A DNA stretch of 62,111 nucleotides. It comes from an uncultured Desulfobacterales bacterium (GTDB lineage Bacteria > Desulfobacterota > DSM-4660 > Desulfatiglandales > HGW-15). The position numbers and the translations under genes are program-made. The notes beneath the pieces were generated by a model that saw only the letters and a list, made by a program, of their open reading frames with translations, made no database searches and was not told where the DNA came from. How positions within the stretch are numbered: position 1 is the first letter of the stretch; every line of letters starts with the position of its first letter. Of the stretch, positions 21,481-47,933 are shown piece after piece. The stretch is from assembly GCA_964591925.1 (NCBI GenBank), contig CAZQCK010000002.1, positions 2,647 through 64,757 of the forward strand. Reading direction: 5' to 3'.

Positions 21481-21632
21481 AGGTCCATATCTCGAATCAG
21501 GTGTTTAGGACGGCTCGTCGCAGGAAACGCCGGTCAAACGAATTCCTCAAAGACGGCAAGCTTCGAGTGTGAATGCTGAAAGGTCGATTTACCTACCAGA
21601 TTCACCGCGCATGTCAACCGATTTTGATTTCC

Positions 21633-21660
21633 TTGACGTAAATCCCTGAACTCCTATAAT
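21633..21660 (+). promoter_or_regulatory. sigma-70-type promoter candidate for mtaD
   Basis: TTGACG (21633-21638), a 16-nt spacer, then TATAAT (21655-21660). It lies ~140 nt upstream of the preferred mtaD start. Confidence 0.45.
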
Positions 21661-21802
21661 GCCCCTACGATTACGCGTACCGACGCCGACCAGCCCGCAC
21701 GCGCCCAGGCCCGAAGGGTCACGGAAAGCCCCGGCCCCGGCGGTGGAGCACGGCCGGCATTCGGGCCGGGTCCTGAACGTATACCCTCTTTGCGAGGCGT
21801 GC

Positions 21803-25399: not shown

Positions 25400-25555
25400 A
25401 ATGGCCGAAAAACACGCGTCCCGCAGGCCTGCCCACAGCCGAGCCACGACCCGGTATTGGGCATCGGGGCGACATCCTTAATCCGCTCTCCCGTGCATCG
25501 GCGATGTTCCAAACAGATACCCGGGGAGGCACGGGCACCCAAAGGAGTCAGCATC

Positions 25556-26770
25556 GTGAATCAAACACAAATAGCACAATCTGAAAGCGTGTTCGGCAAG
25601 GAAACCGTAGAAATGCTTCTGCAGGTCCACAAGGACGCCCTGTGGATTCTGGAAAACATAGGCGTAGGTTGTAAGCAGCCGGAAATGCTGCAAGCATTTC
25701 AAGAACAGGAAGCCGAGGGCCTGGCCTATGTGTGGGAAGACAGAATCTTCGTCACCAACGACCTCGTGGAAAAATGTCTTCAGACCGTGCCCAAGGTGGA
25801 CGACTTCTTTGTTCCGAAGAGCAGCTATTTCATCGGAGGGACTGCGCCGTATATTTACGACGACGAGGCCGGTGAAGGGGGCGTCTTCCCCAAGCCGGAG
25901 CACGCAGAGAGGATCGCGAGGATCGCCGAGGAGAATGACATAGTGCACGGCATGGGGCGGGGAATCAAACTCAAGGATGAAGTCGAACAAATGAACATCA
26001 TGGTGGACAACTGCAGTAAGCCCATGTACTTCGCAGTTACTTCGGACCGTGCGCTCGAGCGGGCCATGGAGATCTACGAGACCAAAAAGGACATCATGAT
26101 CGTCTTTTGCCTCACCCGCTCACCCCTGGAGGTGAATGAAAACTTTTCCGAGCATTTTTACAAGGTGGCCAAGGCCGGTCTGCCCGTGTTTGACTCGGCC
26201 ATGCCCATGGCCGGCATCAGTGCGCCTTACTGCTACAACGGTGTCCTGGCCATGACCCATGCGGAGGTCCTCTTCGGGCTCTGCACGACCCAGCTCGTTA
26301 ATCCCGGCGTACCCTTCATTCATGCCGGGTTTCCGACCATCGCCGATCCGAGCATAGAATACAACCCGAACTACGGCCTGGTCAGCCACTTTCTTCTGAA
26401 CCTCTTCATGACCCACCTGAACCTAATGCTGGATCTTCCCTCCTGCCAGAGCTGCGGCACCACGCACGAGGAACACCCGACGGAGAAGGCCTATCAGGAC
26501 TGCCGGAATGGTCAGGCCATGTGCGAGAAGTACGGATTTCACATGATCCGGCACCCGTTCTCGTTCCTGCGATACCTGATCGACTTTTCCTTCGAAAAGC
26601 TGGAAAAGGGCATGCGCATCGCCGAGGAGATCTCTCCCGATGACGCCCCGGAGGTGGTAATGCCCGCCTATGACGAGCGGGGCATGGAGTCCATCAAGAA
26701 CATCGGTCTCGGCATGTACATGGAGGACCCGCTCACCACGGCCAATCTGGGCAAGGTATTCGTCGAATAG
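25556..26770 (+). CDS. MttB-superfamily (trimethylamine methyltransferase family) protein, short non-Pyl paralog 1
   Basis: The N-terminal pattern VHKDALWILENIGV...LVEKCLQTVPK and the central MPMAGISAPY...THAEVL resemble the non-pyrrolysine MttB family. I prefer the GTG start at 25556 (aaaggag RBS 7 nt upstream), giving 404 aa. The track ORF begins at 25457. Confidence 0.7.
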   Translation: MNQTQIAQSESVFGKETVEMLLQVHKDALWILENIGVGCKQPEMLQAFQEQEAEGLAYVWEDRIFVTNDLVEKCLQTVPKVDDFFVPKSSYFIGGTAPYIYDDEAGEGGVFPKPEHAERIARIAEENDIVHGMGRGIKLKDEVEQMNIMVDNCSKPMYFAVTSDRALERAMEIYETKKDIMIVFCLTRSPLEVNENFSEHFYKVAKAGLPVFDSAMPMAGISAPYCYNGVLAMTHAEVLFGLCTTQLVNPGVPFIHAGFPTIADPSIEYNPNYGLVSHFLLNLFMTHLNLMLDLPSCQSCGTTHEEHPTEKAYQDCRNGQAMCEKYGFHMIRHPFSFLRYLIDFSFEKLEKGMRIAEEISPDDAPEVVMPAYDERGMESIKNIGLGMYMEDPLTTANLGKVFVE

Positions 26771-28516: not shown

Positions 28517-29848
28517 ATGGCATTTCCAACCAAAGTAAAATACGTAATCATCGGGGCGGGCGTTCACGGCCTGAGCACCGCCTGGCATCTGGCCAAGGAG
28601 CTCAAGGCCGGAAAGGCCGGCTCCGGAGAGGACATCCTGCTCCTGGACAAGACCGCCATCGGCGCGGGGGCTTCAGGTATCGCCTGCGGTGTAATCCGCA
28701 ACAACTACTTCCAGCCGGCCATGCGCGAGCTCATGGCCCAGAGTGTGGACGTATGGGAAGAGGACGCGGAAGGGTACGGATACAACCCCCTGGGATACAT
28801 GCAGATATCCTGTGAATCCATGCATGCGGACGTGGCCACCATCTATGAACAGCAAAAGGCCATCGGCTATGAGTCCGTGTTCGTGGAGGGAGAGAAGGAC
28901 TGCCTCGATTACATGCGAAAGCACATCTTTCACGACTGGCAGGCCAAAAACATAACCTCCGTACTCCACGAGAAAAAGGGTGGATTCGCCTACAACATGC
29001 GTTCCCTTTACCGGCTGGCGGACAAGGCCGAGGCAGAAGGCGTGCGCATAATGACCGACGTCCGGGTCACAGGGCTTCCCATGCAGGGCGACACGGTCAC
29101 GGCCGTGGAAACGGACAAAGGAACCATTGAGTGCGACTACGTGATCTGCGGGCCCGGCCCATGGGCCAAGACCTTCTGGGACATGCTGGGGCTCCCCAAC
29201 GAGATCGACATTCTGGGACGCGACGGGAGTGTCCACAAGGGCGTCCCCATGTGGACCTACTGGTGCCTTGTGGAGGGAACCCTGGGAGTGGAACCGGAGG
29301 TGGGCTATGACAACAACGGCAATCCTCCGCCGGTGATCCATGTAGACACCGACGCACCTCTTTACTCCAGTGAGGACGGATCGCTGATCACGGACAAGAT
29401 TTGGGGGATCTATTACAAACCGGACCTGAATTTCGGCGGCATTCAGGGCGGATCGGCCCCCTACATCGTGGAAGGTTATCCTGAGGTGGATCCTTACGGC
29501 ATCGATTCTCCCGACTTTGTCGTGGGCCCCGAGTTCGTTCACATGTGGACATCGGCCCTGGCCCACTGTCAGAAGCGATATGAGGACAAATACCGTTTCT
29601 ACAAGAACATCCCTTCAGGCGGGCTCGGCTGCTTCACTCCGGACAACTTCCCCATTTTCGACGCCTTGAAGGAAAACTGCTACCTCATGCTGGATTCGAA
29701 CCACGGCTACAAGATGATCGGCGTAGGAAAGCTCGTGGCCAAAGAAGTACTGAACGAAGAACAAGAGCTGCTCAAGCCGTTCCGTTTCGAGCGTTATGAA
29801 AAAGGGGAGCTGCACCCGGTCTCTCACAGCCCCTTCCCATGGAGCTGA
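28517..29848 (+). CDS. FAD-dependent oxidoreductase (DAO family, sarcosine oxidase beta-subunit-like)
   Basis: 443 aa with a dinucleotide-binding motif (KYVIIGAGVHGLSTAWHLAKE). The overall pattern and C-terminus (FRFERYEKGEL) resemble SoxB-type enzymes. Confidence 0.8.
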   Translation: MAFPTKVKYVIIGAGVHGLSTAWHLAKELKAGKAGSGEDILLLDKTAIGAGASGIACGVIRNNYFQPAMRELMAQSVDVWEEDAEGYGYNPLGYMQISCESMHADVATIYEQQKAIGYESVFVEGEKDCLDYMRKHIFHDWQAKNITSVLHEKKGGFAYNMRSLYRLADKAEAEGVRIMTDVRVTGLPMQGDTVTAVETDKGTIECDYVICGPGPWAKTFWDMLGLPNEIDILGRDGSVHKGVPMWTYWCLVEGTLGVEPEVGYDNNGNPPPVIHVDTDAPLYSSEDGSLITDKIWGIYYKPDLNFGGIQGGSAPYIVEGYPEVDPYGIDSPDFVVGPEFVHMWTSALAHCQKRYEDKYRFYKNIPSGGLGCFTPDNFPIFDALKENCYLMLDSNHGYKMIGVGKLVAKEVLNEEQELLKPFRFERYEKGELHPVSHSPFPWS

Positions 29849-30414
29849 CGATCCTCGGGTCTGGAGGGTGCACGGTCATTCCCAAGCCCTGTTGCAGGTG
29901 CAAGGTGTGTGAGGAGGCCAGAAGCAGGGGCGTTCCTTTTGCAAGATCGGGCCCTTCGGCCTTTGTCCACGACATTCGGCTGCTGATCGACACCCCGGCG
30001 GAAATCGCCCAACAGCTCAACCGGGAATGCATCGAGCAAGTGGAGCATCTTCTCTTCACCCACCTGGATCCGGATCACGTGGAAGGATTCCGCGTGGTCG
30101 AACAGATCGCCCTCGATTTCCGCACCTGGCGCGCCTACTCGGACAAACGCATCCGCCTGCTTCTTCCGCGTGCACTCGAGGAGAGAATGCACGGGATTCG
30201 ATCCGCATACGGCCCGCTGATCGATTTTTATGTGGGGCAGGGCTTTGTCGAGCCCGTCCTGTTCGAGGACTCGATCGATATTCAGGGCGTCGCAATACAG
30301 GCCGTCCCCATTGATCGCGGAGATCAGACCACGTTTGTGTACGTGTTCAACGACGGTGAGAAAAAGATGGTCTACGCACCTTCTTTTGATCACCCGCCGA
30401 AGCCGGGGGATTGA
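29839..30414 (+). CDS. PqqB/PhnP-like metallo-beta-lactamase-fold protein, N-terminal half only
   Basis: 191 aa. LGSGGCTVIPKPCCRCKVCEEAR resembles the Cys-rich N-terminus of PhnP/PqqB. The metal motif reads THLDPDH instead of HxHxDH. The ORF stops where family members continue. It overlaps the upstream gene by 10 nt. Confidence 0.55.
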   Translation: MELTILGSGGCTVIPKPCCRCKVCEEARSRGVPFARSGPSAFVHDIRLLIDTPAEIAQQLNRECIEQVEHLLFTHLDPDHVEGFRVVEQIALDFRTWRAYSDKRIRLLLPRALEERMHGIRSAYGPLIDFYVGQGFVEPVLFEDSIDIQGVAIQAVPIDRGDQTTFVYVFNDGEKKMVYAPSFDHPPKPGD

Positions 30415-30442
30415 ATCAACTCTAACGGCAAGGAGAACCATA

Positions 30443-31663
30443 ATGGAATCGACGGAAGCCTTGAACAACCAGGATGAAGAGAACCTCCCTCTGGAAGAGA
30501 CCGAGTTTATTAGACGCATTCATCAGGATGCGCTGCGGGTACTGGAGGAGGTGGGGGTGCGGTGTACCTCGTCCGTTGTGCGCCGCATCTTCGAAGAAAC
30601 GGGCCTGGCGGCTTATGACGAGAGCAGAGGTCACCTGCACGTTCTGACGCCCCTGGTTGAACAGGCCCTGAGCACGGTCCCCAAACGGGACACGTACTGG
30701 ATTCCGGAGAACTCCTTCGGGGTCGGGGGTACCTCCCCGTTCGTATACGACGATCAGACCGGTGAACTCATCGAACCGACCCTCGATCACCTCATCCACA
30801 TCGCCAAGACCGTAAACCAGGCCGACGGTGTCAACTTCATGGCCCGGGGGGTCCTCCTGAAGAAACAGGAGGTCAAGGTCATGGACACGATCGTGGAACA
30901 CTGTGACAAGCCTGTTTACGTGGCTGCGGTCACCGAGGAGGGCATTGCTCGCGCCAAGGAGATCCATGAAACCCGCGGGGGGATCACCATTCAGTTTTCC
31001 ATCCTCAACAGCCCGCTTTTACTCATCGAAAGCATGGTTGAACCCTTCCTGGCGTGCATCAAGGCGGGACTTCCCATCTACGTCTCCACCATGCCCATGG
31101 CCGGTCTGAGCGCCCCTTACTCCATGTCAGGACTGCTGACCCTTACGCACGCCGAGGCCTTGTTCGGCATAACCCTGACCCAGCTCGTCAACCCGGGGCT
31201 CACCACGGTCCACGCAGGGCTTCCTTCCATCGCGAACATTCAGAGAAACTACGCCGTGGACCTCGGCCTCGTTTCTCACAACGCGGCCAATCTGCTCATA
31301 GAAAAGGTGAGTAAAAGGCTGAACATCCCGTCCATCCAGACCGCCTGCACCACCAGCCAGGAGCACCCCAACAAAAAGGCCGAGGAAGAAGGGGCGGCCG
31401 GGTTCGCCATGATGAAAAAGCACGGCTTTCACCAGATGCGGCACGCCTTCGGCTTTCTCAAGGAACTGGTGTCCTTTTCCATAGCCAAACTGGAGCGCCA
31501 CATCGAGCTGATGCGGGAAACCGGTCCCGAGCAGGCCCCGGAGTACGACTTCCTCGTATACGACCCCGAAGGCCTGGAGGTGATCATTCGAAACGGCACC
31601 CAGGCCAACTACATGCGGGACGATCACACCCTCAAGAACACGGGCAAGGCCTTTCTGTACTGA
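30443..31663 (+). CDS. MttB-superfamily protein, short non-Pyl paralog 2
   Basis: 406 aa starting at MESTEALNN (aaggag RBS). It is collinear with paralog 1 (IHQDALRVLEEVGV..., MPMAGLSAPY..THAEALFG..LVNPG). Confidence 0.7.
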   Translation: MESTEALNNQDEENLPLEETEFIRRIHQDALRVLEEVGVRCTSSVVRRIFEETGLAAYDESRGHLHVLTPLVEQALSTVPKRDTYWIPENSFGVGGTSPFVYDDQTGELIEPTLDHLIHIAKTVNQADGVNFMARGVLLKKQEVKVMDTIVEHCDKPVYVAAVTEEGIARAKEIHETRGGITIQFSILNSPLLLIESMVEPFLACIKAGLPIYVSTMPMAGLSAPYSMSGLLTLTHAEALFGITLTQLVNPGLTTVHAGLPSIANIQRNYAVDLGLVSHNAANLLIEKVSKRLNIPSIQTACTTSQEHPNKKAEEEGAAGFAMMKKHGFHQMRHAFGFLKELVSFSIAKLERHIELMRETGPEQAPEYDFLVYDPEGLEVIIRNGTQANYMRDDHTLKNTGKAFLY

Positions 31664-31682
31664 ATCCACGACCCATGAATAA

Positions 31683-31716
31683 GGGGACGGCGCGATTCTC
31701 CTGCGCTGTCGTCCCC
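31683..31716 (+). terminator. GC-rich stem-loop after MttB-like 2 (no U-tract)
   Basis: ggggacg-gcgcgattctcctgcgctgt-cgtcccc. This could be a terminator or a processing/stability hairpin. Confidence 0.25.
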
Positions 31717-31737
31717 ACCGACTCCGTAACGTCTTGA

Positions 31738-31869
31738 ACCTGAATTGAGCGATTGTCGAGTTTGCCGAAGATGCAAGGAAGAAGGTGCTTCGCTATACTC
31801 AGGTATGCGAAGCGCCGAATGACGCCGCAGATTCGGTAAAAGCTGCAATTTGAAACGCTCAATTCAGGT
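31738..31869. mobile_element. MITE, short (132-bp) copy with 14-bp TIRs and a TGA target-site duplication
   Basis: The left TIR acctgaattgagcg and right TIR cgctcaattcaggt are perfect reverse complements. The element is flanked by tga (31735-31737) and tga (31870-31872). Over the first ~104 bp it differs from the 54197 copy at only 2 positions. Confidence 0.8.
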
Positions 31870-31950
31870 TGACATCTCGCCCCCTATTCTGCAGATTGTT
31901 GCGGCAGCGGAGGCGACCGGGTACGCCACCGAGCTGAAAGGGGGGCGATC

Positions 31951-34900
31951 GTGTGTGGTATCGTGGGATATTTCGGAGACGCCGGGAACAACCTCACCCG
32001 CGTGCTCACCGCCATGTCGGCCATCACATACAGGGCACCCGACAGCACGGGAGTAGGATTCTTCGGAGATGAAACCGAACCTCTCCGCACCCGCAAATCC
32101 CTTGGTTCGGTGGCCCCCCTGGTCGACGTCCTGGTCGACATTCCCGCCTACCCCAACGCGGCCGAAACATTTCACACCCTGCTGAAAAACCCGAATGAAC
32201 CCGTGCGAAACGCGCAGAAGCGGGTCCTGGAGTTCGAGGGACTTCCCCTGGACATCTTCGAAGCCCTGGACCGGGGCGAGACCTCTTATTGTTCTTTCGA
32301 GGATCTGGTCAACACGGACGACCCTTTGAACCTGGAGCCGGGAAGGCCGGGCCGACCGGATCCACTGCCCCGGGTCGCGATTCGCTCCAGAAAACAGTTC
32401 CAGCGTGTCATTCAAGAGCTCACCTGCAAGTACGACCTTTCTCCCGTAGTGGTTCGCACCCTGATTAGACGGCCCCTGGCCGAGGCCTTGAGCCGCGACT
32501 TCCAAAACGGCTCACTGACCGCTCAACCTATGGAAATCCTCAATGCCTTTGACCGGTTGTTCGATACCGCTTCGCGGGAAGAACGCTCTCCCCGGCCGCA
32601 GCGCATGTACAGTGCCGTACATCCGGACGCGCCTTATGCCGAACGCTATCTCTGGCAATACCTGGTGCGCATTCCCGTGCAGGTCCCTTCAGACTTCGAT
32701 CGAGACGGTGTCCGTTGCCTGTTCAGGCTTCTGGATGCGGCCCTGCTCAGCCGGGCCTCTTCCACACCGCAGCTGGGACCTGCCATACAGGAAACCTTCG
32801 AGTGGCTCTGGCCGGAAGGAAAAGGGGTTCAAACGACCGAGGGGTGGCGATCATGGTATTGGGCTGAAAAGGGCGTCAATGTGTTCGGGCGGGCGGCCTC
32901 CGCTGTTCTCGCCCATTTGCAACGACATGAGATTCTGCCGTCCCTGGCCATGCTGGAGGAAACCGGCGAACAGGGCGTCGAACTCCCGGCGGACGGCCGC
33001 ACGGACCCCTTCACTCTGAGGGCACTGGCCTGCCCGGTGCTCAGTCAGGGGCGATGGGCCCTTCAGTCGCCGGTAACCCTCAAAAACGCCCACCCCTTCT
33101 ATGATCACTTGCGGCACCGCGTCATCGTCCTCAACGGGCAGTTCAGCGGAGACCTGGAGGAAAACCTTCGGCGATTCCTAGAGAACGTGGCCGGATATGA
33201 TTTGCGAAGCCGGAACTCTTCCGAGTATTTCGCGCTCCTCTGGGGGTACTACTACGATGTGTTTCGAGGAGAACAGGGACGCTATGAGGCGGTCCGCGCT
33301 CAGATCGACCGGCACCTGGAGGCCTTCGGCATCGGCAGCCGCTCAATTGACTATGAAATCTACCAGCGGCTGCACGGCAAGTCTCCGGCGGAGCTCGATG
33401 CCGCTGCCTTTGTAGAGGCCGCCCGGTGCATGGCCCGGGACGGAGGACAAATCGCTGTTTCCGGCATGGGCCTGTTGAGCCCCCGCACCCTGTACGTGGC
33501 CAGCCACAACCGCCCTGTGTTCATTGTCCACCGTGCCGGCACGCAGGATTTCATGGTTGTCTCCGATGTCAATGCCGCCATGGGCCTGTTCCCGCAAGAA
33601 ATCATCCACGAAAAGGCCCTGGAGCTGTACAGGATTCAAAAAATACATCAAAGGGAGATCGCCGATCTCCGCGCACAAGGGGTTCGCAGGGAAAAGATCG
33701 TAGGGACCAAAAAACGCCAGGAACAAGAGGAAGGGCGTATCCTGGAAACCTTTGCCGTGAAGGTTTATCCCCTGGAGGGCGAAGAGGCGTTTGCCCGCAT
33801 TCAAACGAGCCCCACCTCGTCCGGGCCGGTCCGTATGGTGACCATCACGGATTTCCAGGGAAGGCCCCTTCCCTCTGTGGAACCTTTCCAGACAAGACTC
33901 AACCCTCTTCAGACCGGAAAAGACCTCCACCGCTCCTTTTACGAAACCCATTTGCTCGAGACGCCGGAGCGCTTTGAACAGATTCTTCAACTCCGCGTGT
34001 CCGAAGAGGACGAAACGCCCCGATTCGAGCTCAGGGAAAGCCTCTTGAGGAGACGCTTCGGCCGCCACCTGGCTTCCCTGGGCCGAATCGTCCTTATGGG
34101 CATGGGCAGCGCTCATCATGCCGGCATCATGGCCAGGCGCACCCTGCAGCTCGCCTTGCCGGAAATCGAGGTGGTCTCCTTGAGACCGGTGGAGGTGGAG
34201 GATCTGAAGCGCTCGATCATACCGGAAAAGGATCTGGTCCTTCTTCTGAGCTGGTCCGGGACCACGGCGGACATGGTCCGCACGGCCAACGAGCTCACAT
34301 CCATGAAGGCGGCGTGTATCGGCGTCACGGAAAAGGCGTTCTCCGATGTGGGCCTGATCACTTCCCGCAGCGTGGGCGTCATCCCCGTTCTGAGTGGTGA
34401 AGAGGTCACGGTACCGGGACTGAAAAGTATTCTCTGTATGATGTTCAACGTTTCTCTCTTCGCGGTCTGGCTTTCCTCCAGGGCGAGACCTGGCACGAAT
34501 ACGGGCCGGCTCATGGAGGGGCTTCAAGGTCTTCCCGACGTCCTCTCCGATGTGCTTCACGACGAGGCAATCGCCTCCTTCTGCCATGATCTGGCAACGA
34601 AAAGTGCCCGGAGCCGATGCGCCATGGTGATCGACGCGCTCTACTCCACCGGTGCGGGCCGCGAAGCCGCGTTTAAACTGGAAGAGACCAGCTGGAACGC
34701 CATCAGCCGCTCACTGGACTACAGGGAAGCCGCCGAGGGGCTGCCCGGGCATGATCCCTCCCGAGACCTGGTCCTCCTGAACGCGACGAACCAGGAGCGC
34801 ATTTCCGAGGCGCTGGACATCATGAGGATGCTTACGGCAAAAGACATGCCTTTTGCCGTGGTGGGGTTCTCCGGCAGACACCAGGCGGAAATGGAACAAG

Positions 34901-36510
34901 CCGCTGGAAGCGGTTTTATCGCCCTTCCCAAGATTGAAGACGAGCTCCAGCCTTTTGTGGACCTTGCATTCTATTACCAATTCGCTTTCCAATACGGTCT
35001 TGCTCACGGCAGGACATCCGAGGACTTCCCGCGCAACCGGGCCAAATCCGTGACTGCGGGACGTTCCTCAGGCCGGACCGGTCTCACGCCCGCCGCCGAG
35101 ATACTGGAAATGGAAACAACCGGAACCCACCCTGTGGTGTGCAACGCGGACCTCCCCCCGCTCTCTGAAGAGAGCCTGTGGGAGCAGGCCGCCTCTACGC
35201 CCTCTGAACGGACTTACTACGCGGGCATGAGAAAGCTGGCCGCAGCCTTACTCGAAGAAGGCGGCCCGGAAACCCTCCTCCATGCTTCCCGTTCCCGCCC
35301 CTTCAGGCTGGCCAAGACGCTCTTCGAGCAGGCACCGGATGAAGGAGAGCTGCTCCTGGTACCGATGGACAGGGCCGCCCACAGCACGGCGCGGACGCTC
35401 GGCATTCACTGGGGGCGCTTGCTGGGATGCGGTGTCCGTGTGGCCACACCGGAGGACATTCTGGCGCACCCACCCCAGGATGTACCCGTCTTCCACCTCG
35501 CGACCCGCCGTCCGAATCCCTCATCTCTTTCAGCCCTGGTGCAAGAGACATTTTCGCCCTGTTTCTACTGCGGCCCGGAACTTCCCGAAAAGGCTGCCTC
35601 CATGTTCGACACGAGGCTCGGGCACTGCGTCCTGCCCGACGAATTGCAGCCCTGCGCCGAGGAAGCCCTTTATGCCGGCTTGTTCCTTCTGTTCGCCGAC
35701 GCCTGGAAACGGGTGAACCTTGCGAGGGGCGCCACCGCTTTGCAGCAGTTGCGTCAATGCGCTCCGGCCGTCCATGCGGTCCTGAACAGCACCTCTCTTC
35801 GAGAGTCCATCTCCGAAGCCGTGCTGGACAATCGTGATTATACCACAGCCTTTTTCATCGGCCAGCCGGGGGGAACCGGGACCGCCTGGGTGCGCCGCTT
35901 CGATGAAATCTCTTGTCTTGCCATGGAATCCTATCTCTTCGGTGAGAGCGTTCACGGCCCTCTGGTGACGGTGGACTCCCGCGTGGATGTCAAGTACGTC
36001 CGAATCGAGGCTCGATCCAAAATGATCTCCACCCACGGAGAAGACCGCTTGTCCGCATGGGAGTCCCAATGCCTGAAGGGACAAACCGTGGACGATTTCC
36101 TCGCAAATCCGCCTCGAAACGTCCCGTTCTACCCACGAAGCCCCTTCTATGCGGAAGGCAGCTGGTATTTCCCGGTTCTCAGGCCCGGCTACAACCCGGA
36201 AAACGACAATCTGATCCTGCTGGACGCCACCAGCGATCGGTTCATCGGACAAATCCTGGACGAAATGGCTACCTACGGATGCCGCTACGCCCGGGTGATT
36301 CTTATCTCTCAGCAGGCGATAGAGGCAAGGCCGGATCGAAGGACACTGCACCGGTATCCCATCGGGCACGCACTCTCCCTTCCCTCCCTGTGGAGCGGCG
36401 GGCGGGAAAGGCCCATATCGGATCTCGCTCTCCCTCTGGTGCTCAACCTGGTCTCCATGGCCATGGCGTCCGAAACCAAACCCGGCCGTGCCGGTATCTC
36501 CATTCATTGA
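31951..36510 (+). CDS. 1519-aa GlmS-like protein: interrupted class II glutamine amidotransferase domain + SIS pair + additional SIS-like C-terminal module
   Basis: GTG start, then CGIVGYFG (Ntn Cys), then GRWALQSPVTLKNAHPF ~310 residues later. SIS motifs are present (RIVLMGMGSAHHAG, LLLSWSGTTADM, GREAAFKLEETSW). A GlmS-like C-terminal FPRNRAKSVT sits at residue ~1030 and is followed by ~480 more residues with another SIS-like signature (FFIGQPGGTGTAWVRRFDEISCLAMESYLFGESVHGPLV). Confidence 0.85.
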   Translation: MCGIVGYFGDAGNNLTRVLTAMSAITYRAPDSTGVGFFGDETEPLRTRKSLGSVAPLVDVLVDIPAYPNAAETFHTLLKNPNEPVRNAQKRVLEFEGLPLDIFEALDRGETSYCSFEDLVNTDDPLNLEPGRPGRPDPLPRVAIRSRKQFQRVIQELTCKYDLSPVVVRTLIRRPLAEALSRDFQNGSLTAQPMEILNAFDRLFDTASREERSPRPQRMYSAVHPDAPYAERYLWQYLVRIPVQVPSDFDRDGVRCLFRLLDAALLSRASSTPQLGPAIQETFEWLWPEGKGVQTTEGWRSWYWAEKGVNVFGRAASAVLAHLQRHEILPSLAMLEETGEQGVELPADGRTDPFTLRALACPVLSQGRWALQSPVTLKNAHPFYDHLRHRVIVLNGQFSGDLEENLRRFLENVAGYDLRSRNSSEYFALLWGYYYDVFRGEQGRYEAVRAQIDRHLEAFGIGSRSIDYEIYQRLHGKSPAELDAAAFVEAARCMARDGGQIAVSGMGLLSPRTLYVASHNRPVFIVHRAGTQDFMVVSDVNAAMGLFPQEIIHEKALELYRIQKIHQREIADLRAQGVRREKIVGTKKRQEQEEGRILETFAVKVYPLEGEEAFARIQTSPTSSGPVRMVTITDFQGRPLPSVEPFQTRLNPLQTGKDLHRSFYETHLLETPERFEQILQLRVSEEDETPRFELRESLLRRRFGRHLASLGRIVLMGMGSAHHAGIMARRTLQLALPEIEVVSLRPVEVEDLKRSIIPEKDLVLLLSWSGTTADMVRTANELTSMKAACIGVTEKAFSDVGLITSRSVGVIPVLSGEEVTVPGLKSILCMMFNVSLFAVWLSSRARPGTNTGRLMEGLQGLPDVLSDVLHDEAIASFCHDLATKSARSRCAMVIDALYSTGAGREAAFKLEETSWNAISRSLDYREAAEGLPGHDPSRDLVLLNATNQERISEALDIMRMLTAKDMPFAVVGFSGRHQAEMEQAAGSGFIALPKIEDELQPFVDLAFYYQFAFQYGLAHGRTSEDFPRNRAKSVTAGRSSGRTGLTPAAEILEMETTGTHPVVCNADLPPLSEESLWEQAASTPSERTYYAGMRKLAAALLEEGGPETLLHASRSRPFRLAKTLFEQAPDEGELLLVPMDRAAHSTARTLGIHWGRLLGCGVRVATPEDILAHPPQDVPVFHLATRRPNPSSLSALVQETFSPCFYCGPELPEKAASMFDTRLGHCVLPDELQPCAEEALYAGLFLLFADAWKRVNLARGATALQQLRQCAPAVHAVLNSTSLRESISEAVLDNRDYTTAFFIGQPGGTGTAWVRRFDEISCLAMESYLFGESVHGPLVTVDSRVDVKYVRIEARSKMISTHGEDRLSAWESQCLKGQTVDDFLANPPRNVPFYPRSPFYAEGSWYFPVLRPGYNPENDNLILLDATSDRFIGQILDEMATYGCRYARVILISQQAIEARPDRRTLHRYPIGHALSLPSLWSGGRERPISDLALPLVLNLVSMAMASETKPGRAGISIH

Positions 36511-36542: not shown

Positions 36543-37448
36543 ATGAACGTAACCGTGTATCAGACCAACCCCACACTGCTTGATCTTCATGCAAACATGG
36601 AGGACGTCCTTGCACGCATCAAGGAGGGGCGCGAAAACGGATCCTCCCTGATGGTCTTCCCCGAGCTGGCCCTCACCGGGTACTTCGTGGGCAGCCGCTA
36701 TCACGAGGTGTCCCTTCGCCTGGACTCCGAAGAAATCCGCACCATCGCCTCAGCCACCAAAGGGACTGCGGCTGTGGTCGGATTCATCGAGGAGTCTCCG
36801 TCCATGAACTTTTACAACTCCGCGCTCGTGGCCGTGGACGGGGAAATTCTCTTTACCTATCGAAAGCTGAACCTCCCCAACTACGGCGTATTCGAAGAGC
36901 GCAAGTTCTTTTCTTCCGGAAAGCAGGTCCCCGTGTTCAAGCTGCACGATTTCACGGTGTCCGTCCTGATCTGCAACGACCTGTGGCATCCCTCACTTCC
37001 TTACCTGGGGGTCTGCCAGAAGGCGGACATCTTCGTGACGATTTTCAACTCCTCCCAAGGTTCCATGGGTACGGAGTTTTCCAACATCGAGAGTTGGGGG
37101 ATCATCAACAAGTTTTATTCCCGGATCTTCGGCATCTACAATGTCTGTGCAAACCGTGTTGGAGAAGAGTGCCACGAGAACCGAAGAAGGCGTTCCCCTG
37201 AATCGAGAGGGCCTGAGTCCGAAGCCGATTCCGACGAGATTTCCCAATCCTATCGATTCTGGGGGGGGAGTGAAATCATCAATCCCTTCGGCCAGCCCAT
37301 GGTACGCGCGGCCCTCTACGAACCGGACACCATCTCCGCGGTGCTCTCGAGGGATCTTCTTCGCCGAAAAAAGATCCTTCTTCCCTACCTTAGAAACGAC
37401 GACCCCTACTTCACCCACCGCGAGCTCCAGCGTATTCTCTACGGCTGA
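36543..37448 (+). CDS. carbon-nitrogen hydrolase (nitrilase superfamily)
   Basis: 301 aa with an E-K-C triad context (MVFPELALTGY, YRKLNLPNYG, VLICNDLWH). The start is at MNVTVYQ (aaggggg RBS), 32 nt after the upstream stop. Confidence 0.85.
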   Translation: MNVTVYQTNPTLLDLHANMEDVLARIKEGRENGSSLMVFPELALTGYFVGSRYHEVSLRLDSEEIRTIASATKGTAAVVGFIEESPSMNFYNSALVAVDGEILFTYRKLNLPNYGVFEERKFFSSGKQVPVFKLHDFTVSVLICNDLWHPSLPYLGVCQKADIFVTIFNSSQGSMGTEFSNIESWGIINKFYSRIFGIYNVCANRVGEECHENRRRRSPESRGPESEADSDEISQSYRFWGGSEIINPFGQPMVRAALYEPDTISAVLSRDLLRRKKILLPYLRNDDPYFTHRELQRILYG

Positions 37449-38484: not shown

Positions 38485-40569
38485 CTATTGCTCGTGATTC
38501 GACAGCACCCGCTTAAGGGCGATGCCTATACTCTCCAGGGTATAGGGCTTCTTGACGTATTCACCGGCCCCCAGGCTTTGAGCCTCCCGCACCCGCTCGT
38601 TTTCTGCAAACCCGCTGGCGATCACTGCCTTTTGGCCCGGGCGCATTCGGCGAACCTCCCGGTAAGTGTCCAGGCCGTCCATGCCCGGGTCCATAATCAT
38701 GTCGAGCACGAGCACATCAGCCTCATGTTCCTGCAAGTAGGCCAAGGCGTCCTCTCCGCTCGAGGCGGTTTCCACGACATAGTTCAACCTTTGGAGCATT
38801 CGGGTGGCAATATCCCGCTGGCCCTCCACGTCGTCAACCACGAGCACGCGCTGCCCTTCTCCCATGAAATCCGTCACCGACAAACGCGCCCGCCGCTGGA
38901 CCACGGGCCCCCTCGTGATGGGGAAGTAGAGCTCGAAAGTGGTCCCCTTTCCTTCACGGCTCATAACATCGATATATCCGTGATGGTCCTGGACCGTCCC
39001 CCAGACCACGGCCATGCCGAGACCAGTGCCGCTCCGTCCCATGACCTTCTTCGTGTAAAACGGCTCGAAAATTCTCTTGAGGTCTTCCTCAGCGATACCC
39101 ACCCCCTCATCCCTGACCCCGAGAACGACGTACTCCCCTTCACGAACATTTTCGTATCCTTTAACCGCCCTGTCAACGTAGCGATTCGTCGTGTAAATCT
39201 CGACACATCCGCCGGCCGGTTGTGATTCAGCGGCATTGGAGACCAGATTCATCAAGGTCTTTCGAAGATGGACCGGAGAGCCCTGGATGTTCAAGAGCTT
39301 CCCGCTCAGCCTGGTCTCGATTTTCACCTCGAGGTGATAGCGTACAAGCTTGTCGTGCTCCGGAGAGAGCAGATAGTTGTCGATCACCTCGTTCAGATTC
39401 AAGGCCTCGGTGTTGGTGACCCCTCGACGGGCCAGGGTGAGGAGATCCTGCACAATTGCCGCCGCCTTCTGGCCGGAATCCTGAATGGTGAGAATGGGCT
39501 TTCTGAAGGGGCTTTCCTCCGGCAGCTCCAACAACAGGAGATCGGGATAGCTAACGATTCCGGAAAGAACATTATTCAAGTCATGGGCCACCCCCCCCGC
39601 CAGAAGACCAAGGGCCTCCATTTTCTGAGATCGGGCGAGTTTTTCCTCCAGGTCGATTTTTTCCTTCTCCGCCTGCTTCCGCTCGTTGATCTCCCGATGG
39701 AGCTGCTCGTTGCTCTCCTGAAGCTCGGACGTGCGCGCCTCTACCCTGTCTTCGAGCCGGGTGTTCAAGGTCTCCAGCTCACGGTTGGATTCCTCCAAGC
39801 GGGACGCATAGGCGTCTTTCGCCGCAATGGCGTCTGTGAGCGCAATGTGCTGCCCCTTCAACCGCGTAGACATGTCATTGAAATCGGATGCCATTTCACC
39901 TATTTCGTCGCTCATGGTCAGCTCCACCTGCTGGCCCAGGTGCCCTCCATGCACCTTTCGTATGGCGTCCCGAAGTATGGAAGCAGGCCGGATCACGGAT
40001 CGTGAAAGAAACAGGTTCAGGAGCAGGGTCATGATGAAGAGGGTGCTGAGCAACAGGCTCCCAAAAAAGGCGAGGGTTATGGTGGACTCCCGTTTCATGT
40101 CAGCCAGGTCGTAATACATACGCAGGTATCCGATCTTCTCGCCGATCACTTGAATCAAAGTGGCGTACTCGACGAACGATCCGCCTTGCATCTTTCGGAT
40201 CTCGAACACCGAAGCGTTGCTGATGGCTCTTCTTTGCGCCGGGGTGAGAAACTCCGTTGCGGAGTCGTCTGTGGAGAGAAGGCATTGTCCGTCCAGATCA
40301 TACACGCTCAGAATGGCGATCCCCTTCACCTGCTGCATGTCTTGAAGGGTGCGCTTCAAGGCGAGAGGCTGATTGGCGAAAATCTCGTTGGCGAGCTCGT
40401 CTCGCTTCTGTTGAAACACCGTATCCAGAAGCACCTCGATCTCCTCGAAACGGGCGTTTCGCCTGTTGATCTCGAACGGATACAACAAGCTCCAGAAAAT
40501 GACGACGATAATAGCGCACGTCACCAGGATCGCAGCATTGATTTTGAATCGAAGGCTCTTGTTCAGCAT
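38485..40569 (-). CDS. hybrid sensor histidine kinase/response regulator
   Basis: TM helix, periplasmic sensor region, second TM helix, HAMP domain, coiled coil, HisKA (LAGGVAHDLNN), HATPase (NLVSNAAES, DEGVGI, GTGLGM) and a C-terminal REC domain (VLVVDD...LVLDMIMPGMDG). I set the start at Met15 (MLNKSLRF). Confidence 0.85.
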   Translation of the reverse strand: MLNKSLRFKINAAILVTCAIIVVIFWSLLYPFEINRRNARFEEIEVLLDTVFQQKRDELANEIFANQPLALKRTLQDMQQVKGIAILSVYDLDGQCLLSTDDSATEFLTPAQRRAISNASVFEIRKMQGGSFVEYATLIQVIGEKIGYLRMYYDLADMKRESTITLAFFGSLLLSTLFIMTLLLNLFLSRSVIRPASILRDAIRKVHGGHLGQQVELTMSDEIGEMASDFNDMSTRLKGQHIALTDAIAAKDAYASRLEESNRELETLNTRLEDRVEARTSELQESNEQLHREINERKQAEKEKIDLEEKLARSQKMEALGLLAGGVAHDLNNVLSGIVSYPDLLLLELPEESPFRKPILTIQDSGQKAAAIVQDLLTLARRGVTNTEALNLNEVIDNYLLSPEHDKLVRYHLEVKIETRLSGKLLNIQGSPVHLRKTLMNLVSNAAESQPAGGCVEIYTTNRYVDRAVKGYENVREGEYVVLGVRDEGVGIAEEDLKRIFEPFYTKKVMGRSGTGLGMAVVWGTVQDHHGYIDVMSREGKGTTFELYFPITRGPVVQRRARLSVTDFMGEGQRVLVVDDVEGQRDIATRMLQRLNYVVETASSGEDALAYLQEHEADVLVLDMIMDPGMDGLDTYREVRRMRPGQKAVIASGFAENERVREAQSLGAGEYVKKPYTLESIGIALKRVLSNHEQ

Positions 40570-40683
40570 GGTCAAAAAAGCCCCGGCTGGTGTTCCGGCA
40601 CCTCCCTTCACTGTCGAAACGGATTTGCCTTGACCTGATTTCAGGCTTGATTATTCCCGGCGCTCTTTGCAGGAAAGAAAGGC

Positions 40684-41868
40684 TCACGGCGCCACAGAAT
40701 GGCCAAGGACGCTTCCCTCCTTATCGAACCGTAGAATGATGGCCTCCTTGCCCTGGGGATCGCCCATCTCGTCGAAGCCTATGGTCCCGGTCGCCCCCTG
40801 AAACCCCCGGGTCTCTCTGAGGGCCTTCAGTACACGGGCCCGGTCCGTGCTTCCCGCACGCTCAACCGCGTGCACAAAGAGCAGGACCGCGTCATAGGTC
40901 AGCGGTATGCGCATATCGGTGATCCGTGCCTGCCCAAAACGCTCATGGTACAACCGCTTCAACACCCGGTTCCGTTCAAAGGGCAGGTCCGAATGGTAGT
41001 GAGTCGAATGATAGGCCCCCAAGACCGCATCCCCCGCGTACTTGCGCATACTCTCCCCCCACCCGTCTCCGCCCAGAAAGGTGGTGTCGACCCCCATCTT
41101 CACCGCCTGCTGCACCAGAAGCCCGCTGTCCCGAGCATAACCGGGAATGAAAAGCACGTCCGCATGTATTTTCCGGACGTGGACCAGCACATCTTCGAAG
41201 TTCACGGCTTTCCCCGTGTACGATCCTTCCCACACCACCTCGCCTCCCCTCTCCTCGAACGACCGGCGGAACATGTCGGCCAGGGTGATGGAGTAAGTCT
41301 CATGCATGTTCTTCAACACCACGGCGGTCCGCGCACCGAGCTGTTCAAAGGCGAAGCGGGCCATCACCCGCCCTTGAAAGCTGTCACTGTTGCAAATGCG
41401 GAACACGCAGTCACCGATCCGTGTGATTTGGGGCTTGGTGGCGGTAGGCGTGATCATGGGAATGCGGGCCTCCTGCAAAACAGCTGCGGTGGAGAGGGCG
41501 TGCGAGCTCCAGAGAGGGCCGATCACCCCCGCCACACCGGACTGCACCGCTTGTTCCGCTGCACCTTTCGAGCCGAGCGGCGTGCTCTGGTTGTCAATGA
41601 TGAGCAGCTCCAAAGGGTGTCCTAAAACACCGCCCGAACGGTTGATCTCATCGGCGGCCAATCTTGCCGCTCCCACAGCGGGCTGATTGTCCTCCGAAGC
41701 GATACCCGTCCTTGCAAGAATAAGGGCGATCCGGACGGGATCTTCAGCAAAGGCCGGAAAAGCCGGAAACAGCGTACCTGCAATCAAAGACAAACAGAGA
41801 ACCGGCAGGAGAAATCCCCGCCTTCTGCGCGTAGCGATCATGGTCCCTTTTCCCCTGGCATGACTCAT
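40684..41868 (-). CDS. periplasmic binding protein, LivK/branched-chain amino acid type (type 1 PBP)
   Basis: 394 aa with a signal peptide and PBP1 motifs (GVAGVIGPLWSS, FIPGYARDSG, GATGTIGFDEMGD). Confidence 0.85.
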   Translation of the reverse strand: MSHARGKGTMIATRRRRGFLLPVLCLSLIAGTLFPAFPAFAEDPVRIALILARTGIASEDNQPAVGAARLAADEINRSGGVLGHPLELLIIDNQSTPLGSKGAAEQAVQSGVAGVIGPLWSSHALSTAAVLQEARIPMITPTATKPQITRIGDCVFRICNSDSFQGRVMARFAFEQLGARTAVVLKNMHETYSITLADMFRRSFEERGGEVVWEGSYTGKAVNFEDVLVHVRKIHADVLFIPGYARDSGLLVQQAVKMGVDTTFLGGDGWGESMRKYAGDAVLGAYHSTHYHSDLPFERNRVLKRLYHERFGQARITDMRIPLTYDAVLLFVHAVERAGSTDRARVLKALRETRGFQGATGTIGFDEMGDPQGKEAIILRFDKEGSVLGHSVAP

Positions 41869-41875
41869 CCCAGCC

Positions 41876-43036
41876 TCAATTCAGGTTTTGGTCGTTCAGA
41901 CCGACCGTCTTGAGATATTCCGGCGACCCGTTGGAAACCTCCATGATGACCGCGTCCTTGATGGGGTCGCCGTGGGCGTCGAAGCTGATGGGGCCGGTCA
42001 CGCCCTCAAACCCTCGAGTACCGGCCAGGGCCCGACGCAAGGCCTGCCTGTCCACCGATCCCGCACGCTTCAAGGAGTCCACGATCAGCATTATCGCGTC
42101 AAAGGCCAGGGCCTCGGCCGCGGTCAATGAGTCGAACCCGGATCCCCCCGCCTCCACCCGGTGAGCCAGATCCACAAACCGTTGGGAGGCCTTTGTGGTT
42201 GCATCCTCGTTCCAGTGCGTGCAGTGAAATCCCTTCTTCAGGAACCGTCCTCCCCGCTCCGGAAAACTCTCGCCCACCCAGCCGTCTCCTCCCAGGAAAA
42301 CGCTGGAAACGCCCGCCTCGAGGGCTGCTTGAATAATCGCCCCGCTCTCGTCATGCCCCGGAATGAACACGATCTCAGGACGGGACCGCTGGAGCTCAAC
42401 CGCAATCTTGCGAAAGCTCTCCTGGGAATGCTTGTAGCCCGGTTCCCGCAGCACCCGCCCGCCTCCGGTTTCGAAATTCCGGCGGAACTCCTCGGCCAGA
42501 CCAAGGCTGTAATCGCTGGACAGGTCCTTGAGGATCACGGCGGTCTCCGCCCCCAGATCCTCCAGGGCGAATCGGGCCATGACCCGCCCTTGAAACGGAT
42601 CTGTGAAGCAGACTCGAAAAACGCAATCCCCGATTCGAGTCACAGCGGGATGTGTGGACATATTGGTTACCATGGGAATGGAATGCTTCTGCGCCACCCT
42701 CGCCACGGCCAGGGAATGAGAGCTCCAGGCCGCCCCCATAATGGCCGCGACCCCCATTTCAACCGCCTTGTCCGCAGCCACCTTGGAGCCGATAGGGGTA
42801 CTCGAATTGTCGATTTCCACCAGCACGAGGGGGCGTCCCAGGACCCCTCCCGATCGGTTCACCTCCTGAACGGCCAGACGGGCGCCCTGCAGGGAGGGGG
42901 CGTTGGAAGCCGCCGCAGGCCCGGTAATGGAGAAAATTGCGGCAATGCGAACGGGCTCCTCGGCCGAGCCGGCTGAGGGATGTGGAATACCGAGGACCAA
43001 GGCCAGGATGAAACCAGCCGCCCGTGTTTTCTTCAT
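41876..43036 (-). CDS. periplasmic binding protein, LivK type (paralog)
   Basis: Collinear with the downstream paralog (GVAAIMGAAWSS, FIPGHDESGA, GVTGPISFDAHGD). The start is Met25 of the track ORF (MKKTRAAGFILAL) with a gggaggag RBS. Confidence 0.85.
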   Translation of the reverse strand: MKKTRAAGFILALVLGIPHPSAGSAEEPVRIAAIFSITGPAAASNAPSLQGARLAVQEVNRSGGVLGRPLVLVEIDNSSTPIGSKVAADKAVEMGVAAIMGAAWSSHSLAVARVAQKHSIPMVTNMSTHPAVTRIGDCVFRVCFTDPFQGRVMARFALEDLGAETAVILKDLSSDYSLGLAEEFRRNFETGGGRVLREPGYKHSQESFRKIAVELQRSRPEIVFIPGHDESGAIIQAALEAGVSSVFLGGDGWVGESFPERGGRFLKKGFHCTHWNEDATTKASQRFVDLAHRVEAGGSGFDSLTAAEALAFDAIMLIVDSLKRAGSVDRQALRRALAGTRGFEGVTGPISFDAHGDPIKDAVIMEVSNGSPEYLKTVGLNDQNLN

Positions 43037-43126
43037 GGGTCTCCTCCCGCCGGATCGGCAGCAGGCCGCCCGCAGAATAGACGTCCGGGTTCGATTTGAA
43101 ACGTTCAATTCACGTTGGATAGAAAA

Positions 43127-43141
43127 GCAATAGTTATGCCA
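43127..43141 (-). promoter_or_regulatory. sigma-54 promoter candidate for the PBP-PBP-kinase operon
   Basis: The minus strand reads TGGCAT-aacta-TTGC, with GG and GC at the canonical spacing. It lies ~90 nt upstream of the 43036 start. Confidence 0.6.
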
Positions 43142-43248
43142 ATGCCTGGAATACCGGAAATAGCGGAGAAAACGGGGACAGTGCGCCTGATGGAGAAAAA
43201 ATAATCGTCAAAAAACCAACAAGGCTTGCCTGCATTGCGTCGCAGAAT

Positions 43249-46292
<3,044 letters not shown>

Positions 46293-46335
46293 TCACCCCC
46301 TTTTATGCAATGGGATATACGGAACTCTGACGAAA

Positions 46336-46412
46336 TCGTAAAAACTGTATTCTCTCGCAAAGACGCCAAGACGCTAAGAAAAGATCTTGTGATATCAACA
46401 TCAATCAGTTCA
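46336..46412. repeat. palindromic repeat element, left arm + loop only
   Basis: tcgtaaaaactgtattctctcgcaaagacgccaagacgctaagaaaa is identical to the 58236 copy. The element breaks off in the loop (atcaatcagttca) exactly at the amt stop codon. Confidence 0.65.
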
Positions 46413-47630: not shown

Positions 47631-47667
47631 GAAAACCTCCCTTTCCTTGGATGTGCCCGCTTCCTTC

Positions 47668-47682
47668 GCAAGGCGCATGCCA
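47668..47682 (-). promoter_or_regulatory. sigma-54 promoter candidate for amt-glnK-glnD
   Basis: The minus strand reads TGGCAT-gcgcc-TTGC. The -12 GC lies ~38 nt upstream of the 47630 start codon. Confidence 0.65.
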
Positions 47683-47933
47683 GAACAAACAGATCCGTTT
47701 TTCTATGTATTATCAATGCATTAAGCCTAAGACCATCGCCAGGGGGCTTTTCCGCCGCCCCTGCAAAAGACAAAAACGTATAGCAAAACAGCCAATGCGA
47801 CAAAATTGGCGAAGCGGTCTTTGCGGCTTGGCGAGATAGTTTGACCTGAATTGCGAAGTCATCAAAATGGGTGGGGTTGTAAAAGTCCGGGATCCGGCAA
47901 TGTGCCGCGGACCGGATGCTGCGGGAAATCCCG

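Follow-up and report, generated by a model that had tools for sequence, protein, structure and literature searches.

GlmS is the textbook example of a channelling amidotransferase, and its active site needs a homodimer. Enzymes of the GlmS/GFAT type (Escherichia coli GlmS, 1jxa/2j6h; human GFAT1, 6r4e) are about 600 to 700 residues long and join an N-terminal nucleophile (Ntn) glutaminase, starting at Cys1, to an isomerase made of two SIS subdomains. The large subunit of glutamate synthase (about 1500 residues) also begins with a Cys1 Ntn domain, and ammonia is channelled to a distal synthase site. Smaller SIS proteins of about 330 to 350 residues, namely FrlB (a fructoselysine-6-P deglycase), AgaS and NagB-II (a SIS-type GlcN-6-P deaminase; 8eol/3hba), have no glutaminase domain and possess a complete active site of their own. 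Here we analyzed a gene at positions 31951 to 36510 of a 62,111-nucleotide stretch of contig CAZQCK010000002.1 from an uncultured Desulfobacterales bacterium (this whole stretch is called the window), which encodes a giant GlmS-like protein of 1519 residues.

The giant protein belongs to the GlmS superfamily, which unites an Ntn amidotransferase and a sugar-phosphate isomerase, and has a single-chain architecture that is new; it works most like GlmS/GFAT. It has the same domain order, the Cys1 glutaminase with counterparts of Arg73/Trp74 and Asn98-Gly99, and a two-SIS isomerase with the phosphate loop, Lys485/Glu488 and the C-terminal tail that bears Lys603. It differs from GlmS/GFAT in being 2.5 times larger, in an insertion of about 305 residues between GlmS positions ~63 and ~70 together with two smaller inserts, and in the replacements Asp123 to Ser, Gln348 to Trp and Glu351 to Thr. 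Moreover, its isomerase domain lacks a His504 loop of its own, which is carried instead by an extra degenerate module; its scores fall far below the cut-offs of the GlmS hidden Markov models (HMMs); and the gene is found in a setting of methylamine catabolism, not among genes for making the cell wall. Unlike in glutamate synthase, no flavin mononucleotide, GXGXG or glutamate-synthase domains were detected in it, and its synthase part is a GlmS-type SIS pair. The features of the gene and its product are listed below in window coordinates, each with its basis (AF2, AlphaFold 2).

31951..36510, + strand: giant GlmS-like gene, 1519 aa, GTG start, TGA stop at 36508-36510 (list of open reading frames, sequence, full-length homologues)
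31951..32109, + strand: Ntn glutaminase core, first segment, residues 1-53, with MCGIV (Cys1) and YRAPDSTG (alignments, AF2 model)
32110..33030, + strand: family-specific helical insertion domain, residues ~54-360 (AF2 model mostly helical; no Pfam match)
33031..33870, + strand: Ntn glutaminase core, second segment, residues 361-640, with R368, W369, H381, N395-G396 and S423 (alignments, AF2, Foldseek)
33217..33219, + strand: Ser423 codon (alignment to the GlmS Asp123 position; Ser in 119/119 relatives)
33871..35058, + strand: GlmS-type isomerase domain, residues 641-1036, two SIS subdomains and C-tail (Pfam SIS, GFAT1/GlmS alignments, Foldseek)
34249..34272, + strand: phosphate-binding loop S767-W-S-G-T-T-A-D774, equivalent to GlmS S347-Q-S-G-E-T-A-D (alignments)
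34663..34686, + strand: E905...K909.E911-E912, equivalent to GlmS E481, K485 and E488, the catalytic base (alignments)
35029..35055, + strand: C-tail P1027-R-N-R-A-K1032-S-V-T, equivalent to the GlmS Schiff-base lysine tail PRNLAK603SVT (alignments)
35059..36507, + strand: C-terminal module, residues 1037-1519 (483 residues), probably a very diverged second SIS pair (hhalign, AF2)
35938..35976, + strand: His-loop F1330-G-E-S-V-H1335-G-P-L-V-T-V-D1342 (alignment to GlmS A499-G-E-L-K-H504-G-P-L-A-L-I-D)

A family of giant GlmS-like proteins

The open reading frame at 31951-36510 (+) comprises 1519 codons with no internal stop, and both the G+C content and the skew of the region are unremarkable. 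Its second codon, TGT, is predicted to expose Cys1 once the initiator Met is removed. A first, sequence-only reading of the window had described a GlmS-like giant protein whose GTG-TGT start exposes Cys1. Both points were confirmed, the first by the intact frame and by alignments to GFAT1 and GlmS, and the second by the sequence itself and by the relatives, since MCGIV opens essentially every complete member and MCGI[VL] is found in all complete relatives.

Among 5.8 billion proteins searched, more than 120 clusters of about 1500 residues proved to be 40-80% identical to the giant protein, with 94-100% query coverage except for one truncated entry. In a scan of one genome per GTDB species, 187 genomes encoded a relative, or about 0.1% of species. 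The best 80 of these 187 genomes comprise 77 Desulfobacterota (Desulfobacterales, Desulfobacteraceae, Desulfatiglandales, Desulfohalobiaceae/Desulfovermiculus and the Delta 3 and Delta 4 symbionts of Olavius algarvensis) and 3 Spirochaetota; all 80 are metagenome-assembled or symbiont assemblies, with no cultured isolate among them. It was legitimate to ask whether the long frame is an assembly or annotation artefact joining separate genes, since the window is a metagenome-type contig. We found no evidence in favor of this. More than 120 independent clusters, drawn from assemblies of NCBI, JGI, ENA and Logan, have the identical architecture on contigs as long as 4.2 Mb, conservation is unbroken across every junction, and the structure models are confident across domain boundaries. 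With full-length homologues in so many clusters and in 187 species genomes, the gene is thus neither a chance reading frame nor an assembly-made fusion; we give the artefact explanation practically no credence and regard the architecture and the family as almost certainly real.

Database entries name the relatives 'SIS domain-containing protein', 'hypothetical protein' or, generically at JGI, 'glucosamine 6-phosphate synthetase-like', and full-text literature searches found no description of the giant protein. These generic names and the NCBIfam GlmS scores below cut-off agree with the earlier remark that no characterised enzyme has such an architecture; nor does any named family have it. The family probably represents a new specificity within the Ntn-amidotransferase/SIS-isomerase class.

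Complementary losses in the isomerase domain and a probable second copy

We then compared the isomerase part with E. coli GlmS taken from NC_000913.3, which served as the reference for all residue equivalences, while residue conservation was counted in an alignment of 119 relatives. Residues 641-1036 align end to end with GlmS 289-608 and finish in PRNRAKSVT, the Lys603 tail, so that the SIS pair indeed ends at the usual GlmS C-terminus, as had been noted from the sequence. In a PDB sequence search, residues 365-466 and 641-1036 aligned to human GFAT1. The only Pfam domain recognised in the window protein is a single SIS domain at residues 707-839, corresponding to the first SIS subdomain. NCBIfam GlmS models match residues 629-1035 with 136.1 bits against a cut-off of 381 (NF001484) and 123.8 against 418 (TIGR01135).

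In GlmS, Glu488, Lys485 and Lys603 are catalytic residues (PMC9272926), and loop 347-352 (SQSGET) binds phosphate (PMC3224219). In the giant family, E905, K909 and K1032 are present in 119/119 sequences and E912 in 118/119. The Ser and Thr residues of the phosphate loop (S767, S769 and T772) are conserved relative to GlmS, and W768, at the position of Gln348, is invariant together with S769. The first isomerase domain is devoid of the His504 loop: the aligned positions 925-935 are variable among the 119 relatives and contain no His. GlmS needs to be a dimer for activity, since the active site of each subunit is completed by the His504 equivalent of its neighbour (PMC3224219).

A counterpart of this loop lies in the C-terminal module, where FGESVHGPLVTVD (1330-1342) was aligned by profile to AGELKHGPLALID, the His504 loop of GlmS. 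H1335 is present in 118/119 relatives, and the GES-x-HGPLVTVD loop is near-invariant. With the HMM of the module, E. coli GlmS was aligned over positions 450-513 (E 7e-4), and hhalign of the module against the first SIS pair gave a collinear alignment over 279 columns (E 7e-4, probability 27%); against the single E. coli GlmS isomerase sequence, hhalign returned a local match at the His loop only. The AF2 model of residues 641-1519 (predicted local distance difference test [pLDDT], 86.3; predicted template modelling score [pTM], 0.90) shows two successive beta-alpha-beta sandwiches after a linker. Foldseek matched this model to GlmS isomerase domains with template modelling (TM) scores of 0.85-0.89, in which the module that was matched is not distinguishable. 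The module positions aligned to the phosphate loop (1184-1190) and to Glu488/Lys485 (1316-1320) are variable among the 119 relatives, and the module has no Lys-bearing tail. The losses are thus complementary: the first copy keeps all but the His and the second keeps little but the His-loop. The same pattern is seen in P0162, a relative at only 25% identity.

The sequence-only reading had placed a further SIS-like module after the GlmS C-terminus and had likened it to a fused deglycase or isomerase of the FrlB/AgaS type. The first part was supported by hhalign, the His-loop alignment and the beta-alpha-beta fold, which was predicted confidently, even though the Foldseek match could not be assigned to this module separately. 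The second part was not supported. An independent second active site of the FrlB/AgaS/NagB-II kind (deglycase, deaminase or isomerase), allowing two consecutive sugar-phosphate reactions, would fit the SIS-like layout of the module, and its family-invariant residues beyond the His loop suggest a binding pocket of its own. Pfam, however, finds no SIS domain in 1037-1519, and only SIS-type families recur in a family scan of 23 members; the phosphate-loop and Glu/Lys positions vary; the Lys tail is absent; and PDB profile matches to deglycase or deaminase SIS proteins arise only through the first SIS pair, which matches NagB-II and putative phosphosugar isomerases weakly. Since it lacks the conserved phosphate loop and catalytic residues, the module appears functionally unlike FrlB, AgaS and NagB-II, and we consider a second active site distinctly unlikely. 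As only the His-loop is conserved, the best reading of the alignments is that the module is a degenerate partner domain, which fits better than a second enzyme.

Complementary degeneration of two copies is as expected of an internally duplicated, fused pseudo-dimer, and we propose the following mechanism. After removal of the initiator Met, Cys1 would hydrolyse the amide donor, with N395-G396 as oxyanion hole, R368 binding the carboxylate and W369 acting in gating. Ammonia would pass to the GlmS-type isomerase site, formed by the phosphate loop, E912, K909 and the Schiff-base K1032, where a phosphorylated keto-sugar would be aminated and isomerised. The ring-opening histidine, H1335, would be supplied in cis by the C-terminal degenerate isomerase copy, making the protein a fused pseudo-dimer with complementary losses in its two isomerase copies. 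Architecture, residue conservation, predicted folds and gene context are direct results of the analysis; we infer the geometry of cis-complementation, the channelling of ammonia and the identity of donor and acceptor. We put the chance of a cis-complementing pseudo-dimer at slightly better than even, and that of an aminating isomerase acting from an amide onto a ketose phosphate at about even; as a whole, the pseudo-dimeric GlmS-type amidotransferase/isomerase is the best explanation, which we hold with roughly balanced confidence. If true, this would be a natural single-chain GlmS whose two copies have decayed in a complementary manner, an instance of subfunctionalisation following an internal duplication, and would offer a handle on how the His-loop acts in trans.

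Several points weigh against this proposal. The pseudo-dimer geometry is deduced from conservation and the high pTM, and the alignments behind the AF2 models were shallow, with 27 sequences for residues 1-640 and 23 for 641-1519. The hhalign support for internal duplication reaches a probability of only 27%; no Pfam family matches 1037-1519, and the PDB profile search of 641-1519 recognises the first SIS pair only. Many invariants of the module (WE 1077-78, D1140, W1313, K1348, WE 1370-71 and DNL 1419-21) go beyond what a His donor needs and may leave room for a further function, such as ligand binding or contact with the insertion domain. With D123S, Q348W and E351T, neither glutamine nor fructose-6-phosphate can be assumed as substrate. 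A sugar-phosphate amidotransferase within corrinoid methyltransferase operons is without a worked-out biochemical logic, and our searches returned neither experimental data nor literature on the giant protein.

The glutaminase domain and its amide donor

In the profile alignment of the family, residues 1-65 correspond to positions 1-63 of E. coli GlmS, whose positions 70-131 are matched by residues ~368-434. The gap between GlmS 63 and 70 thus places about 300 inserted residues in a loop of the Ntn core. This large insertion, which had been pointed out as unassignable to any domain, proved to be just that in Pfam: the ~305-residue segment was matched in 0/27 members, including the window protein. 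NCBIfam likewise contained no family that matched this segment or the C-terminal module. The AF2 model presents it as a confident, mostly helical domain with a pLDDT of about 90, and shows two further helical inserts in the glutaminase domain, at ~436-498 and as a hairpin at 549-601. In an exhaustive HMMER search of 1.84 billion representative proteins, the insertion domain gave only 45 matches, nearly all of them proteins of ~1450-1880 residues with the domain at the same position, along with short fragments. Thus, the domain was not detected outside the family.

The model of residues 1-640 (pLDDT, 87.7; pTM, 0.88) was matched by Foldseek to the GlmS glutaminase domain 1xff (E 3e-5; TM 0.60 on target). 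The top matches are all Ntn amidotransferases, including GFAT1, PurF, asparagine synthetase (AsnS) and EgtC, and by this comparison the model has the four-layer alpha-beta-beta-alpha fold of class-II Ntn amidotransferases. Pfam GATase_6 matched weakly in 21/27 members. Cys1 is conserved in the family as the equivalent of GlmS Cys1, and invariant in 119/119 sequences are R368 (GlmS R73), W369 (W74), H381 (H86) and N395-G396 (N98-G99, the oxyanion hole). The position of GlmS Asp123, the residue that binds the alpha-amino group of glutamine (1xff complex), is occupied in all 119 by Ser423, the family reading SENSSEY versus SENDTEV in P0162. An aromatic-rich segment starts from this residue (S423-S-E-Y-F-x-L-L-W-G-Y-Y-F), and at the positions of GlmS T76 and H77 the family has an aliphatic residue and an invariant Gln, respectively. 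Since the glutaminase residues are kept and Asp123 has become an invariant Ser, the hydrolytic machinery seems intact and donor recognition altered; the amide donor is probably bound otherwise than glutamine in GlmS, or is a different amide. The giant family therefore carries, in addition to its two isomerase copies, a ~300-residue domain not detected elsewhere and a changed glutamine-recognising residue.

These replacements bear on the idea of an ordinary glucosamine-6-phosphate synthase isozyme, to which the insertion and the C-terminal module would have been added for regulation or oligomerisation, much like the regulatory elaborations of eukaryotic GFAT. The invariant Ser at position 123, the changes of T76 and H77, and Q348W and E351T, which alter the phosphate loop, all speak against it, although each GlmS catalytic residue has a counterpart in the giant protein. 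The GlmS equivalog scores reach about one-third of the cut-offs, the spread is limited to about 0.1% of species, and the gene lies in methylamine catabolic operons and not with glmU or cell-wall genes. On the other side, P0162 is fused to a GlmM-like phosphohexomutase, the step after GlmS. Taken together, we judge an ordinary isozyme to be improbable.

P0162, a protein of 3083 residues from an uncultured organism (JGI 3300029268), came up as a match to the insertion domain. Its homology to the giant protein extends over ~1430 residues (25% identity, E 1e-92) and takes in the insertion domain, a first isomerase that lacks the His, and the His-loop of the C-terminal module; Asp is kept at the GlmS-123 position. 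Its CGI motif lies at residue 346, behind an N-terminal extension of ~345 residues, which points to a propeptide or to a wrongly called start. About 1500 extra residues include a C-terminal phosphoglucomutase/phosphomannomutase (PGM/PMM) phosphohexomutase module, and nearby genes encode a HAD hydrolase and a sugar kinase that fuses PfkB and GHMP. The PGM/PMM fusion agrees with a hexos(amin)e phosphate as the product of the superfamily. However, as this lineage is very divergent and retains Asp123, it has only an indirect bearing on the Desulfobacterota enzymes. The gene occupies positions 8001-17252 of locus L087, where the neighbours are other giant fusions, one of 2117 residues with MBL/beta-CASP and one of 1860 residues with PfkB and GHMP kinase domains. 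A second distant relative, P0163, has 2946 residues.

A sub-class of ~1830 residues (P0025, P0032, P0033, P0038, P0045, P0063, P0067 and others) carries an extra C-terminal extension of ~305 residues with conserved Trp-rich motifs (for instance, L006 7219-8133). No Pfam or NCBIfam family matched this extension, hhalign against the other modules revealed no relation, and tblastn found it fused only, never as a separate gene, and absent from the window. We also considered whether it is a fused CN_hydrolase, the gene found downstream of the giant gene in the window, and rejected this possibility.

Corrinoid methyltransferase operons and the window neighbourhood

In a further step, we examined the neighbours within 6-8 kb of the giant gene in 54 non-redundant loci, using crude calls of open reading frames, BLAST clustering and Pfam scans of representatives. 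The recurrent neighbours were the following.

MttB-superfamily genes: 28/54 loci, with 34/40 genes on the same strand as the giant gene
OpuAC-type ABC transporter components: 15-22 of 54 loci
MmgE/PrpD-like gene, mostly directly upstream: 13-14 of 54 loci
B12-binding corrinoid protein: 10/54 loci
Pterin-binding methyltransferase: 10/54 loci
GFA: 7/54 loci
Fe-ADH: 6/54 loci
Aldehyde:ferredoxin oxidoreductase (AOR): 5/54 loci
RACo: 3/54 loci

In several operons (e.g., L013), the giant gene lies between the genes for a corrinoid protein and a methyl-corrinoid:tetrahydrofolate (THF) methyltransferase. The recurrent MttB/corrinoid and OpuAC neighbours thus tie the giant family to corrinoid-dependent catabolism of methylated or quaternary amines. 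Such arrangements could also point to a non-catalytic protein that uses a relic GlmS fold to bind a metabolite and serves corrinoid methyltransferase systems as a sensor, scaffold or regulator: in some operons the gene is placed between the corrinoid and methyl-corrinoid:THF methyltransferase genes, elsewhere it adjoins RACo and Met_synt_B12-like reactivation genes, and the different MttB subtypes that accompany it suggest a generic role. We find this very unlikely, since the full catalytic set (Cys1, oxyanion hole, phosphate loop, Glu, Lys tail and His) is invariant across 40-80% divergence, unlike in a pseudoenzyme.

With the pseudo-dimeric amidotransferase/isomerase as the preferred reading, the family could catalyse a reaction that is new to biochemistry: the Ntn domain, with its Asp lost and the aromatic-rich segment gained, could hydrolyse a non-canonical amide, and the single-chain pseudo-dimer would pass the released nitrogen on to a sugar phosphate. 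Candidates could be a glutamine analogue (N-methylated, betaine-type, beta- or modified in another way) or a gamma-glutamyl amine, produced in the catabolism of quaternary or methylated amines. This extension is speculative and unlikely; if true, it would link corrinoid-dependent demethylation to amino-sugar or nitrogen assimilation in marine sulfate reducers and symbionts of gutless worms. Uncultured Desulfobacterales, Desulfohalobiaceae and Olavius symbionts widely carry the gene, and its place within operons of the MttB/corrinoid, betaine-transporter and PrpD-like kinds would make it the marker of a step in the anaerobic turnover of glycine betaine, choline and related osmolytes. In marine sediments, these compounds are a major source of carbon and nitrogen and give rise to methane.

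The gene order shared by the window and its close clade (at least 59% identity) is MarR, MttB-like, AsnB-like, DAO/SoxB-like, metallo-beta-lactamase (MBL)-fold, MttB-like, giant gene and CN_hydrolase, so that the neighbour set of this clade differs by its AsnB-like, DAO, MBL and CN_hydrolase genes. All these neighbours score below NCBIfam cut-offs. In the window, the genes are as follows, each identified by homology and locus comparison.

25457..26770, + strand: MttB-superfamily gene a, open reading frame of 437 aa; orthologues have 404 aa
26856..28340, + strand: AsnB-like amidotransferase, close clade only
28517..29848, + strand: DAO/SoxB-like FAD oxidoreductase
30230..31663, + strand: MttB-superfamily gene b, directly upstream of the giant gene, open reading frame of 477 aa; orthologues have 404-406 aa
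36543..37448, + strand: CN_hydrolase gene, 301 aa, 32 nt 3' of the giant gene, an order found in the close clade only

The MttB-like proteins are distant from the characterised MtgB and MttB (E 1e-12 to 1e-14 against PDB), and they may be regarded as putative methyltransferases by superfamily only. Those encoded next to the giant gene in the window and in L004, L031, L053, L058 and L060 belong to a short subtype of ~404 residues. Pyrrolysine read-through was considered for these short genes and rejected, as gene b stops at TGA and gene a is followed by only 85 nt before the next gene. By tblastn, the window contained no homologue of a corrinoid protein, OpuAC, PrpD, RACo, Fe-ADH or AOR, and no pterin-binding methyltransferase was found near its MttB-superfamily genes. 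The open reading frame of 191 residues at 29839-30414 has a weak Lactamase_B_2 match, at a place where close relatives have an MBL-fold gene of 271-289 residues between DAO and MttB gene b; the window copy is probably truncated or decaying. The CN_hydrolase (36543-37448) scores best against the nitrilase-type glutaminase domain of NAD+ synthase; an amidotransferase gene thus has another ammonia-generating amidase as its neighbour.

Two features were identified directly upstream of the giant gene.

31868..31899, + strand: upstream motif CTTGACATC...TCCTGCAGATTG (TTGACA, 17 nt, CAGATT), a candidate promoter or operator (alignment of relatives)
31940..31945, + strand: ribosome-binding site GGGGGG, separated from the GTG start codon by 5 nt (direct sequence reading)

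The TTGACA-17 nt-CAGATT motif resembles a -35/-10 pair, lies ~50-80 nt 5' of the giant gene and is kept in 8/9 close relatives; a consensus scan did not call it a promoter. The 287-nt leader between MttB gene b and the giant gene (31664-31950) is predicted to fold very stably (dG -132.7 kcal/mol; z = -8.3). This fold comprises a GC hairpin at 31683-31716 and an extended hairpin of ~135 nt with a perfect inverted repeat of 13 nt (CCTGAATTGAGCG / CGCTCAATTCAGG) at its base; in addition, CCCCCU at 31880-85 pairs with the GGGGGG of the ribosome-binding site. Neither a riboswitch nor the glmS ribozyme was found in Rfam scans that covered the window and the leader, and the fold is not kept among relatives, in which the sole conserved part is the TTGACA...CAGATT motif. 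The leader was thus not retained as a candidate regulatory RNA.

Further downstream, a dense nitrogen-sensing block occupies window positions 38485-54161 and encodes a hybrid histidine kinase, two Peripla_BP_6 binding proteins, GlnD, PII, Amt, a second GlnD-like protein and a GAF/sigma-54 activator. The GlnD-PII-Amt block also follows the cluster in the relative L001 (59% identity), and a trio of DUF1015, MTS-type methyltransferase and Amidohydro_1 genes is conserved 5' of the cluster in both (window 19428-23146; L001 1-3402). Finally, a bacterial large signal recognition particle RNA (Rfam RF01854, 145 bits) was found at 11254-11516, overlapping the start of the open reading frame 11464-12402 of the Cu-oxidase_4 family.

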